Below are positions 1 through 2,914 of a stretch of 64,000 bases of DNA, piece by piece. The translations under genes were made by a program, and so were the position numbers. The DNA comes from an uncultured bacterium. Its GTDB lineage: Bacteria; Bacillota_I; Bacilli_A; RF39; UBA660. The DNA is taken from positions 77,226-141,225 of the forward strand of contig CAMVPB010000001.1 of assembly GCA_947169285.1 (NCBI GenBank), written 5' to 3'. Numbering within the stretch: the first letter of the stretch is position 1; the number at the start of each line of letters is the position of its first letter. The notes under the pieces are model-generated. The model ran no database searches and was not told the origin of the DNA. It saw nothing but the letters and a program-made list of their open reading frames with translations.

Positions 1-1297
1 AGCAATCTTCCAAAGAGAATCTCCTTTTTTAACAGTATAATTTGCATAATTAGTAGTACCTGGTATCAATAAAATTTGACCTATTTGTAGTGTATTATTT
101 TTTAAATTATTAGTTTCTTTAATTTGATCTATCGTAACACCATATTTATTAGCTATTGAATATAAATTATCACCCTTTTGAACCACATAATTTATACCAC
201 CTATTGATGGAGTTTCGGTTTCTTCAACACTTGATTCTCCAGTAGGTATAGTAAGGATGTTTCCAACAGTTAAAATACTACTTGTTAAATTATTCACATT
301 TTTTAATTGATCAACCGTAACTCCAAATTTCTTGGCAATTCCATATAATGTATCTCCCGCTTTTATTGTATATTTTGTTCCTAAGCCTGGTGTAATATCA
401 ATATCAACACTACTTTCTTTAGGGATTAATAATTGTTGATTCAGTTTAAGTTTATCACTTGATAAATTATTAACAGACATAAGTGTACTCACAGTTGTAT
501 TATATTTTTTAGCAATATCCCATAAATTATCTCCACTTTTAACAACGTATACTAAATAGTTTTCAGGAACTTTTTCTGTTTCTCCAGATGCAACTTTTAA
601 AGTTTGACCGACTTTCAATATATTACTACTCAAATTATTTAGTTCTTTAAGTTCATTCACAGTTAAACCATATTTAGTTGCAATACTCCATAACGAGTCT
701 CCTTTTTTAACTGTATAATATCCACTTTCCTCATTTGCGACATATGGAATATTTTTGTAATTAGCAACACCTCTTACTACAGCTTCAGCATATTTTTCAT
801 AATTATTCTTAAGTTGATTAACGTCGTCCCCTTTACTATCTAAAAAACCATATTCAACAATTACTGCTTCAGTATTAGGTGTATTTCTATGCATAAAATA
901 ATAATCTTTTACAGGATTACTAGGCAATCTTTGCTGATAGTATTTTCTAATATTTTGCCCTTCTTTCTCAATTTCATCAAGTATATCTTTAGACAAAGTC
1001 GATGTATTTCTTAAAGCGTAAATAACTTCAGCTCCATCTCCTCCACCTGCATTAATATGATTAGAAATAACTATTACATCTTTAGAATCCCCATATGCAT
1101 TTAAAACTCTTCTAACTCTTTCTTTTTGATCTAATGTTTCATCGCTATCTCTTGTTAACGTAACAGGAACTCCTAATTCTCTAAATCTATCATACATATA
1201 TTTACTAATTAATAAATTTAAATCTTTTTCTATAATCCCATTACCTGAAGCACCCGGGTCTTTTCCGCCGTGCCTGGATAGTGATTGCCCCAAACTA
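1..1297 (-). CDS. N-acetylmuramoyl-L-alanine amidase (Amidase_3 catalytic domain + 4 LysM repeats); partial: 3' end runs off window start, 5' end truncated
   Basis: Reverse-strand translation gives ...NSLGQSLSRHGGKDPGASGNGIIEKDLNL... (Amidase_3 HGG/DPGA core, but lacks the first beta-strand and any ATG/signal peptide) followed by four LysM-like blocks (YTVKKGDSLWSIATKYG..., YVVKSGDNLWDIAKKYN..., YTIKAGDTLYGIAKKFG..., YVVQKGDNLYSIANKYG...). Open frame begins directly after a stop at ~1298, 18 bp from the recombinase stop codon. Confidence 0.75.
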
Positions 1298-1309
1298 TTT
1301 TAATAAAAA

Positions 1310-2914
1310 TTAAAGTTCAAAATTCCATATAATTTCAATGTCTCTTGTATTAGTTTTCTTATCGAGTACACCTATATTTATCTTTGTTATAAATTCATCA
1401 ATTATATATTTATTTAACTCTTTAATGTGTTTATATTTTTTTATAATATTATCAATTTCTAAATTCTTATCTTGAGATTTTTCAAGATTTAGTATTTCAG
1501 ATTTTATCTCTTCATTTCTTTTTTTTAATAATTCAATATCTTTAGAATATTCACTTCTTAAATTCCTAAAATCATCATCTGTTATAAGTCCATTAATTTT
1601 ATCTTCATATAAACTTTTAAAATATAGTCTTCCTTTAGCAATTTTCTTTTCATTATCAGATAACTCTTTATTTAAATTATTAATTTTAGATTCAGAACTA
1701 TCCTTTTTAAGAAGTTCATCTTCATATCCTTTTTTTAAGAAATCTTTATTGCATTTAGTTATCAATTTATTAATCTTATCAAGTATATATTCTTCTAACA
1801 CTTCACATCTAATTGATGCATGATTAGGACATATATTATATTTTTTAGCACCCTTACATTGAAGATATGACTTTTTAGTAATTTCTCCACCTATTGTTTT
1901 AGATTTAAATGAGTTTCTCATAAATACTCTTCCACACTCTTTACAATATACTTTTTGACTTAACATATGAACTTTACCAGTTTTAAGAGGCACTTCATTT
2001 TTACCTAATCTAGTTTGAACATAATCAAATATGTCTTTATCAATTATTGGCTCATGTGTGTTATAACAAATACACCAATCAGTCTCTGGAACTTTTTTAG
2101 ATTTATGATTCTTATAACTTATACTCGTTCTTTTACCTTGAACTAAATTCCCAATATAAACAGGATTTTTAAGTATATTTGCTATAGTATCGCAATTCCA
2201 TTTATTTGTTCCATATCTTTCATATGCTAAACTTCTAAAGTTAGATCCTAGTGTTTTTTTATAAAGAGTTGGAATTAAAATATTTCTTGAATTTAAATTC
2301 TTTGCTATTGTGCTATAACCCATTCCTTTGTAATACATATCAAATATATCTTTAACTACAAAAGAAACATTTTCATCAATTATTAGCTTATGTTTATCAT
2401 TTGGATCTTTTAAATATCCATATGGAGCAAAACTACCCATATACATTCCATCTTCTCTTTTATTCTTTAATGATTTTTTAATATTGTTTGAAAGATCTTC
2501 TAAATACCATTCATTAACAAGTCCATTTATTTGCCTAGACTTTTTATTAGCTTCATTTTCAGTATCAGCATTATCTACTATACTAACAAATCTTACACCC
2601 CATTCAATAAACTTATTATGTAAATATCTTTCTATAACTTCCATATCTCTTGAAAATCTACTTTGAGTTTTACATAAAACCAAATTGATTTTTCCACTTT
2701 CACAATCTTTAATAAGTCTATCAAAATCTGGTCTAAACACTCCAGCGCCAGAATAATCATCATCAGAATAAATATCTACAACATCCCACCCTTTTTCAAG
2801 TGCATACTTCAAAAGCATACTCTTTTGATTAACTATTGATTCACTATCATCATTCTTATTTTTCTTATATCTATCTTCATCAGATAGTCTACAATAAACA
2901 CCTACCTTTTCCAA
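1310..2914 (-). CDS. large serine recombinase (resolvase catalytic domain + recombinase domain + zinc ribbon + coiled coil)
   Basis: N-terminus VGVYCRLSDEDR... with catalytic-Ser context (YCRLS), SRFSRD motif, Cys cluster CKECG...C..H, long K/E-rich coiled-coil C-terminus; 534 aa typical of SpoIVCA/phage-integrase-type large serine recombinases. Confidence 0.9.
   Translation of the reverse strand: MEKVGVYCRLSDEDRYKKNKNDDSESIVNQKSMLLKYALEKGWDVVDIYSDDDYSGAGVFRPDFDRLIKDCESGKINLVLCKTQSRFSRDMEVIERYLHNKFIEWGVRFVSIVDNADTENEANKKSRQINGLVNEWYLEDLSNNIKKSLKNKREDGMYMGSFAPYGYLKDPNDKHKLIIDENVSFVVKDIFDMYYKGMGYSTIAKNLNSRNILIPTLYKKTLGSNFRSLAYERYGTNKWNCDTIANILKNPVYIGNLVQGKRTSISYKNHKSKKVPETDWCICYNTHEPIIDKDIFDYVQTRLGKNEVPLKTGKVHMLSQKVYCKECGRVFMRNSFKSKTIGGEITKKSYLQCKGAKKYNICPNHASIRCEVLEEYILDKINKLITKCNKDFLKKGYEDELLKKDSSESKINNLNKELSDNEKKIAKGRLYFKSLYEDKINGLITDDDFRNLRSEYSKDIELLKKRNEEIKSEILNLEKSQDKNLEIDNIIKKYKHIKELNKYIIDEFITKINIGVLDKKTNTRDIEIIWNFEL

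Follow-up and report, generated by a model that had tools for sequence, protein, structure and literature searches.

The left end of the 64,000-nucleotide stretch analysed here (the window, from contig CAMVPB010000001.1 of an uncultured bacterium of the Bacilli) raises the question of how an Amidase_3-LysM gene came to begin, without a start codon, directly behind the gene of a large serine recombinase (LSR). The most probable answer, to which we assign a probability of about 85%, is that an integrative element was inserted by its own LSR into a chromosomal Amidase_3-LysM gene beside murF, at the CA of the zinc-binding His codon of the GHGG motif. The evidence consists of two junctions, inverted half sites, a restorable reading frame, presence/absence polymorphism, a constant orientation and the recurrence of this junction in 121 other contigs.

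Two pieces of one amidase gene

Behind a closing stop codon (TAA, 1302-1300), the minus-strand amidase frame reads NSLGQSLSR-HGGKDPGA... and continues (NSLGQSLSR-HGGKDPGASGNGIIEKDL...) through the Amidase_3 body and then LysM repeats, until it leaves the window at position 1 after 424 stop-free codons. Neither an ATG nor the xIVIDPG strand was found in this frame. Translation and Pfam searches thus bore out the initial annotation, which had described a frame truncated at the 3' end of the recombinase gene and lacking its ATG and first strand. Its estimate that the frame closes about 18 bp from the recombinase stop codon was imprecise, since the closing stop does exist but lies 7 nt past the recombinase stop, and amidase homology begins 37 nt past it. 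The missing 5' part had been expected at the other end of the element and was thought not to be locatable in the window. It is at that end, and inside the window: in a six-frame motif search, the only other site with the expected strand followed a minus-strand ATG at 21547, preceded by AGGTGA. This 5' piece reads MALKGIVIDPGQGR* on the minus strand, that is, MALKGIVIDPG and then QGR and a stop.

Both break points contain CA (21514-21513 and 1272-1271). Joining them CA to CA deletes 20,242 bp and yields ATG..GAC CCT GGT CAC GGC GGA AAA.., translated in frame as MALKGIVIDPGHGGKDPGA... The joined protein matches the Pfam Amidase_3 model (PF01520) over positions 1-174 of 174 (E 3e-31) and carries five LysM domains, against four in the initial annotation. 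A full catalytic domain, with the N-terminal xIDPGHGG strand and zinc ligand, is present only in the joined protein and in neither piece. From the IDPGHGG motif on, the joined protein aligns with Cwp6 (5J72), 4RN7 and CwlD (7RAG). Its first 19 residues are identical to those of two intact homologues, the gene product of locus L084 and the full-length protein P0001, which is 94% identical to the whole reconstruction; matches with a named organism included Holdemanella for the amidase (72%) and Clostridium sp. CAG:609 for MurF (62%), which point to a host of Bacilli type. The pieces at 1-1272 and 21513-21547 are one host gene.

It could be argued that nothing was inserted: translation of the amidase might naturally begin where the frame is truncated, an in-frame TTG (1293-1291) seven codons before the His codon being one possible start, or the assembly might be chimeric. 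No ribosome-binding site precedes this TTG, whereas a ribosome-binding site does precede the 11-codon 5' piece, which lies 20 kb away beside murF, exactly at the start of the intact allele. Intact homologues all open with M..K.IVIDPGHGG, and the split arrangement is repeated in 121 independent assemblies, which leaves this explanation a negligible probability.

With the element in place, the 3' piece has neither start codon nor ribosome-binding site, and the gene, deprived of its start codon, first beta-strand and promoter link, is presumably inactive; carriers would thus be amidase-null at this locus. No terminator-like site was found in 1100-3400, including the stretch between the recombinase gene and the 3' piece. 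The 3' piece is undecayed, with 424 codons free of stops, a ratio of nonsynonymous to synonymous divergence (dN/dS) of 0.07, and nucleotide identities of 87.5% to the intact gene of L084 and 85-90% to that of L001.

The inner flanks of the two junctions are halves of a near-palindrome, TTTGGGGCAAT-CA-CTATCC AGG CA GGG AAGATAG-A-ATTGCACCAAA. Within the 64 kb, exact copies of an 11-nt arm motif (TTTGGKGCAAT) are confined to the two junctions, where they are inverted relative to each other. This, together with the same break point in 121 independent contigs, rules out a chance arrangement. The attP reconstructed from the arms is GGGGCAATCACTATCCAGG-CA-GGGAAGATAGAATTGCACC and the attB is GTTATAGACCCTGGT-CA-CGGCGGAAAAGACCC. 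The mirror arms of this attP around CA fit LSR attachment sites (~40-50 bp, imperfect dyad, 2-bp core), with cleavage positions that are predicted. With both ends mapped and empty sites present in relatives (see below), the earlier proposal of a host gene split by an LSR element, which precise excision would rebuild, was upheld.

By analogy with known LSR chemistry, recombinase dimers would bind the ~48-bp near-palindromic attP and the intragenic attB, make a 2-nt staggered cut at CA/TG in both sites and, after subunit rotation, religate the strands. Excision would be the reverse reaction between the two junctions, with exact restoration of the amidase gene. It might be carried out by the recombinase alone, as with TnpX, or also need a directionality factor, for which the 40-54-aa open reading frame (ORF) directly upstream of the recombinase gene is a speculative candidate.

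Empty sites and the murF locus

Synteny of murF and the amidase gene was found at four empty sites (L001, L002, L003 and L084) and at one occupied site (L089). L084, from a near-identical strain of the same species, was reached through its MurF (P0241, 98% identical to that of the window). It is 97.1% identical to window positions 23838-21510 and then continues with window positions 1263-12, encoding an uninterrupted amidase of 467 aa whose LysM architecture is that of the window gene. In L001-L003, the contigs of P0001, murF is followed directly by an intact amidase gene without a recombinase, and the upstream genes are those of the window; L001 represents a sister species with an uninterrupted allele. 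These sites indicate that the element is present or absent among close relatives. The uninterrupted allele that the initial annotation proposed to look for thus exists, and orthologues sharing the truncated start are excluded, the intact genes starting beside murF. The 20 kb between the amidase pieces, including a SoFic gene, two LysR genes and two genes for large uncharacterized proteins, is accessory DNA and not core genome. An identity of the amidase as a prophage endolysin was also considered, and the murF synteny in five contigs argued against it.

The region upstream of the amidase contains AC-N16-CATATAGTA, a putative sigmaK/E-like motif (AC-N16-CATAnnnTA) about 20 nt before the ATG, which occurs eight times per 128 kb. 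It is conserved in L084 and L001, but the upstream sequences there are orthologous.

The recombinase and its family of elements

The N-terminal resolvase catalytic domain of the 534-aa recombinase (PF00239, residues 6-157, E 7e-23) is followed by matches to Recombinase (PF07508, E 5e-25) and to the zinc ribbon (PF13408, E 4e-11). Its motif VYCRLSDED can be aligned with PDB entries for the catalytic domains of TnpX, TP901-1 and a conjugative-transposon recombinase. Among solved structures, the TnpX catalytic domain (2MHC) comes nearest, and the nearest named relative, which is plasmid-borne, is TndX (34%), while identity to the LSRs of known phages reaches at most 32%. The clostridial elements Tn4451/Tn4453 (TnpX) and Tn5397 (TndX) share the same LSR domains (Resolvase, Recombinase, Zn ribbon, DUF4368) and a 2-bp core exchange. 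It is known that serine-recombinase integrative mobilizable elements (IMEs) integrate within genes and disrupt them; Tn4451 recombines at identical 2-bp cores, pairs TnpX with the relaxase TnpZ and has low target specificity (PMC5704250). The typical members of the family described here likewise pair the LSR with a MobV/Mob_Pre relaxase. The differences are that identity to Tn4451/Tn5397 is only ~34%, that the family hits one motif codon with the core CA, and that the window copy has no relaxase.

Relatives of the recombinase were sought in one genome per species, giving 80 loci at 48-68% identity, nearly all in uncultured "Bacilli/Tenericutes/Mollicutes" metagenome-assembled genomes (MAGs) from the gut. 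In 67 of the 80, an Amidase_3 frame follows the recombinase gene (24-70 nt on, or with one extra gene between) and starts exactly at the H of GHGG. The same His-codon junction was found in 54 of 76 full-length loci on metagenome contigs, and in none of the metagenome loci at ≤49% identity. The GHGG His codon was hit in all 121 recognisable junctions (67 genome and 54 metagenome), next to recombinases 53-97% identical. The target amidases are paralogues, 30-79% identical. Three of the loci (L004, L026 and L048) come from MAGs labelled Methanobrevibacter, Muribaculaceae and Phocaeicola, which most likely reflect binning errors and not real hosts.

Both ends could be mapped for 53 elements, including that of the window, with sizes of 5.5-11.4 kb that are bounded by the 10-kb flanks examined; typical relatives have 8-11 kb. 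The reading ...(I/V)D(A/P/S)GHGGxD.G was obtained in frame for 34/34 of the reconstructed attB sites tested. The sequence that both junctions have in common includes CA in 34/34 elements and is limited to CA in 14 of them; the commonest attP type is a 48-bp palindrome centred geometrically on CA. Throughout the family the recombinase gene adjoins the 3' gene piece and points in the same direction. This constancy is expected if the non-palindromic core CA sets the orientation of integration, which would explain it.

Clustering of the ORFs of 33 delimited relatives revealed a conserved module composed of a ~430-aa protein, an XRE repressor, an 87-aa protein, an HTH_36 protein, a 47-55-aa ORF and the LSR. 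The ~430-aa protein, at the far end, is a Mob_Pre relaxase (Pfam, E 4.5e-31), and its presence in 26/33 relatives places the family among IMEs and not among prophages. The layout is that of IMEs in which a serine recombinase is combined with a MobV relaxase, Tn4451 being the one that has been studied. The HTH_36 initiator-like protein was found in 31/34 elements. In the related elements, 88% of the coding capacity is co-oriented with the target gene, and cargo varies, L058 for example carrying a DncV-like nucleotidyltransferase. The streptococcal serine IMEs (e.g. at rumA; Guedon et al. 2017, PMC5704250) are also small one-LSR elements that disrupt a dispensable host gene, with very short flanking repeats and a relaxase but no mating apparatus. 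They differ in that the target here is the Amidase_3 motif across paralogues and not one orthologous gene, and in their hosts, which here are uncultured Bacilli of gut and rumen. The window element belongs with a lineage of typically 8-11 kb IMEs (Mob_Pre, XRE, HTH_36, small ORF, LSR), of which this copy and its two nearest relatives retain the recombination and initiator-like core.

These two relatives are L088 (LSR 97% identical, 11.35 kb) and L089 (LSR 96%, 8.76 kb), the latter sitting in the orthologous murF-adjacent amidase gene of a sister species. Their half sites and core are identical to those of the window, including the arm at 1273..1302, and neither has a relaxase; their cargo is otherwise different, as are the host alleles. 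Relative to these copies the window LSR has a dN/dS of 0.07, which places it under purifying selection by this measure. The identical arms in different host alleles with different cargo, together with this selection on the LSR, argue that the sub-lineage formed by the three copies moved recently between hosts.

Alternatively, such elements could be prophage remnants or phage satellites with the amidase gene as their attB, dependent on a helper phage for packaging and not on conjugative mobilization. The 8-20 kb size, the XRE repressor and the PHROG-type replication-initiator-like protein are as in many satellites, some relatives encode a Bro-N protein, the defence cargo (SoFic and a CBASS-like transferase) would suit a satellite, and a relaxase is lacking from the window copy. 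However, Pfam and PHROGs revealed no genes for capsid, terminase, portal, tail or packaging redirection. Furthermore, IMG/VR viral contigs yielded a single relative, at 41% identity, and Mob_Pre occurs in most relatives, making a satellite origin quite unlikely; from its gene content the family is not a phage.

As in the LSR clusters of Durrant et al. 2022 (PMC10083194), which use a Mg-chelatase/comM-like gene or a prolyl isomerase, diverged LSRs (here 53-97%) share one intragenic attB. DUF4368-bearing LSRs were associated with multi-targeting in that study; in contrast, the DUF4368 clade described here would look multi-target with genes clustered at 50%, but its motif specificity is strict. 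The main text of PMC10083194 does not contain "amidase", and a full-text literature search found no report of amidase-targeting serine recombinases. Gene-interrupting LSR elements and LSR clusters on one conserved intragenic site are already known (PMC5704250, PMC10083194, PMC7192596), and what is specific here is the catalytic-motif target and the consistency of its use, in almost entirely uncultured hosts. For mobile-element biology, this is an LSR clade with more than 120 loci whose attB is a catalytic-motif codon of diverged amidase paralogues. For recombinase engineering, it offers 53 natural recombinase/attP/attB sets that share the CA core while their half sites co-vary, as comparative data on how LSR site recognition evolves. 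A sister recombinase clade (~48% identical) has no amidase junction; two of its loci, L155 and L158, run into an ABC-transporter ATPase frame at ...QRVALIRTLAMNPDILLLDEP, which suggests that this clade targets another conserved motif.

The target genes carry a second interrupted motif. In about 25 genome loci, the amidase piece behind the recombinase is only 79-131 aa long (most 84-93), the amidase ending right after ...SNHINAGGG (L022, 2148-10212; L004, L005, L009-L012, L016, L018, L021, L024, L025, L028, L034, L035, L037, L041, L048, L050, L054, L059, L061, L068, L073 and L075). In L022, the rest of the amidase gene (GEGAEVVYPL...) was found 7.5 kb downstream, and the intervening DNA encodes its own 508-aa LSR (7665-9191), 35% identical to that of the window, and has arms that mirror each other and a GGAGGTGGGGA core in common. 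A second LSR lineage is therefore directed at another conserved motif of these genes, leaving some of them in three pieces. The NAGGG site is empty in the window.

Two unrelated LSR lineages (35% identical) on the zinc-ligand motifs GHGG and NHxNAGGG could mean that the amidase genes of these Bacilli are switchable, with excision and re-integration serving as on/off control by the host. If so, an autolysin or a CwlC/CwlD-like activity would be under control, possibly tied to sporulation or lysis. We regard this as unlikely; alternatively, both motifs would simply be conserved landing pads.

Content of the window element and its possible roles

The element is a 20,242-bp integrative element (window 1271-21514), whose features are collected in Table 1. 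It has its own integration/excision module (LSR and both junctions). It is atypical for its family in being larger, lacking a relaxase and carrying a SoFic defence gene. For want of a relaxase it was classified as an integrative element of the IME lineage and not as an IME. The XRE repressor and the 87-aa family protein are absent from it, and no phage structural or packaging genes were found in it with Pfam and PHROGs.

Table 1. Positions of the element, its attachment sites and its host locus in the window.
Feature	Position	Strand	Basis and remarks
Amidase gene, 3' part	1..1272	-	His12 codon CAC (1272-1270) onward; translation and Pfam
Core dinucleotide CA, recombinase-proximal junction (putative crossover site)	1271..1272	-	Only sequence common to both window junctions
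Element-derived half site (attP arm) with TTTGGGGCAAT..CTATCC	1273..1302	-	Imperfect inverted repeat with 21483-21512
Large serine recombinase, 534 aa	1310..2914	-	Pfam Resolvase, Recombinase, Zn_ribbon_recom, DUF4368
Sigma-70-like promoter TTGAAA-16-TATAAT (11 of 12)	2952..2987	-	Consensus scan only; just upstream of recombinase start
Small ORF, 40-54 aa, directly upstream of recombinase	2976..3140	-	Conserved; no Pfam/PHROG match
743-aa protein with leucine-rich-type repeats	3332-5563	-	No significant Pfam, PHROG or PADLOC match
695-aa protein	5972-8059	-	No significant Pfam, PHROG or PADLOC match
Weakly SSB-like protein, 154 aa	8463-8927	-	Conserved core pair with 98-aa protein
HTH_36/DnaD_N-like replication-initiator-like protein, 98 aa	9043-9339	-	Pfam and PHROG replication-initiator matches
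Variable cargo: DUF4160, UDG-family glycosylase, two LysR regulators, several unknowns	9940..20201	.	Pfam
SoFic-type Fic protein, distal end	20264..21328	-	PADLOC SoFic E 2e-113, full length; Pfam Fic_N, Fic, SoFic-like_C
Element-derived half site (second attP arm) GGGAAGATAG..ATTGCACCAAA	21483..21512	-	Mirror of 1273-1302
Amidase gene, 5' part	21513..21547	-	ATG at 21547, MALKGIVIDPG, then core CA (21514-21513)
murF terminator hairpin, overlapping amidase upstream region	21569..21600	-	Terminator scan
murF	21736..23103	-	NCBIfam TIGR01143, E 2e-126; chromosomal neighbour fixing amidase as host gene

The two large proteins share a domain of about 120 aa (W..WCT..A.TQLA.GDFYV...P.IA....EI.E.RGI; BLASTP), and both carry repeats of the leucine-rich type at the C-terminus. 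L088 has the 743-aa protein, 94% conserved, but no counterpart of the 695-aa protein. Homologues of the core pair (98 and 154 aa) were found in 46 related loci and in L088 and L089. The possibility that the pair arose by a frameshift splitting an HTH_36 homologue was rejected, the same two-ORF layout being conserved in L088 and L089. Further cargo in the variable region includes a trio of CoaE-like kinase, cytidylyltransferase and metallo-beta-lactamase-fold proteins, a NERD nuclease with a Zn ribbon, and a NUDIX protein. Except for the LysR genes, the cargo of this region is absent from the related elements. PADLOC and PHROGs gave only the SoFic and replication-initiator matches on the cargo.

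Several observations weigh against insertion of a mobile element by its own LSR, or complicate it. Neither Mob_Pre nor any other relaxase was detected in the window element by ORF search, tblastn and Pfam, the oriT lying outside this search. Activity of the window copy would have to be deduced solely from its intact ORFs and sites. An exact 34-mer of the reconstructed attP, as expected from an excised circle, had no match in viral or metagenome contigs. The small ORF upstream of the recombinase gene, 93% identical in L088 and 41% identical to the 47-55 aa "fam4" ORFs that occupy the same position in 26/33 related elements, may encode a directionality factor or a regulator, the former role being a guess. 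Lastly, synonymous divergence (dS) from L084 jumps exactly at the insertion point, from 0.11 on the murF side to 0.68 in the amidase 3' part, while dN/dS is ~0.07 on both sides. The amidase 3' allele must therefore have another history than the murF flank, and going by these values that history is more complicated than a simple recent insertion into the lineage's own allele, suggesting that a foreign amidase allele either came in with the element or lies next to it.

The resemblance to skin in sigK and SPbeta in spsM, drawn in the initial annotation, raises the further possibility that the insertion regulates gene integrity. The target would be a late-sporulation, CwlC-like mother-cell amidase, with excision only in the terminal mother cell and the element kept in the germ line. 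The mechanics of the DNA do agree: as in skin, SPbeta, vfbin, vrin and gin, the LSR gene lies at one end beside the 3' piece and the frame is precisely restorable, and the window copy is a non-phage cargo island without evident transfer genes, as is skin. As in CwlC or endolysins, a signal peptide is lacking from the amidase; the sigmaK/E-like motif, rare in the window, is also conserved in L084 and L001; and the split 3' piece is undecayed. Some relatives are inserted in CwlD-like amidases (183-190 bits to TIGR02883). Mageeney et al. 2020 take many independent insertions disrupting the same domain position as the mark of a candidate case (PMC7192596), and the element family presents this pattern.

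For the part of the comparison that concerns excision timed to sporulation, no evidence was found of a sporulation target, a sporulating host or timed excision, and the family looks like IMEs. The scores of the CwlD-like targets are under the curated cutoff of 221.6 bits. No sporulation hallmark was found with NCBIfam and Pfam in the 64-kb window or in 82 flank proteins of these targets, a screen from which nothing emerged beyond two Hydrolase_2 proteins, a CotH-domain protein and an Abi_2-HtrA synteny. The murF terminator overlaps with the promoter motif, which can also be read as a sigma-70-type -10 box. Most family members, in contrast to skin, are ordinary mobilizable elements with a relaxase and an XRE repressor, and they reside in uncultured Bacilli of gut and rumen, one of which has a complete genome of 1.31 Mb; to our knowledge, these lineages are not known as spore formers. 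Regulated gene integrity is therefore an unlikely explanation, and insertion of an integrative element into an amidase gene that serves as landing site remains the preferred one.

Outside the element, a gene pair encoding Abi_2 and then an HtrA-type protease (42344-44354, minus strand) is preceded by a 740-aa acyltransferase gene. The same pair lies directly downstream of an insertion-bearing CwlD-like amidase gene in 11-14 related genomes (L006, L014, L033, L043, L074, L098, L109 and others). In a 960-aa protein (39394-42276, minus strand), three lamin-tail domains occur together with Fn3-associated/CHB_HEX_C modules and a CotH kinase domain; CotH, though known from spore coats, is not confined to spore formers. 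Just downstream of rplM-rpsI and beside an ABC-transporter pair, a 257-aa protein (50717-51490, minus strand) has an XRE-type helix-turn-helix N-terminus fused to a signal-peptidase-I (SipW-like) domain, and is similar to the XRE repressors found in related elements (60% over 112 aa).

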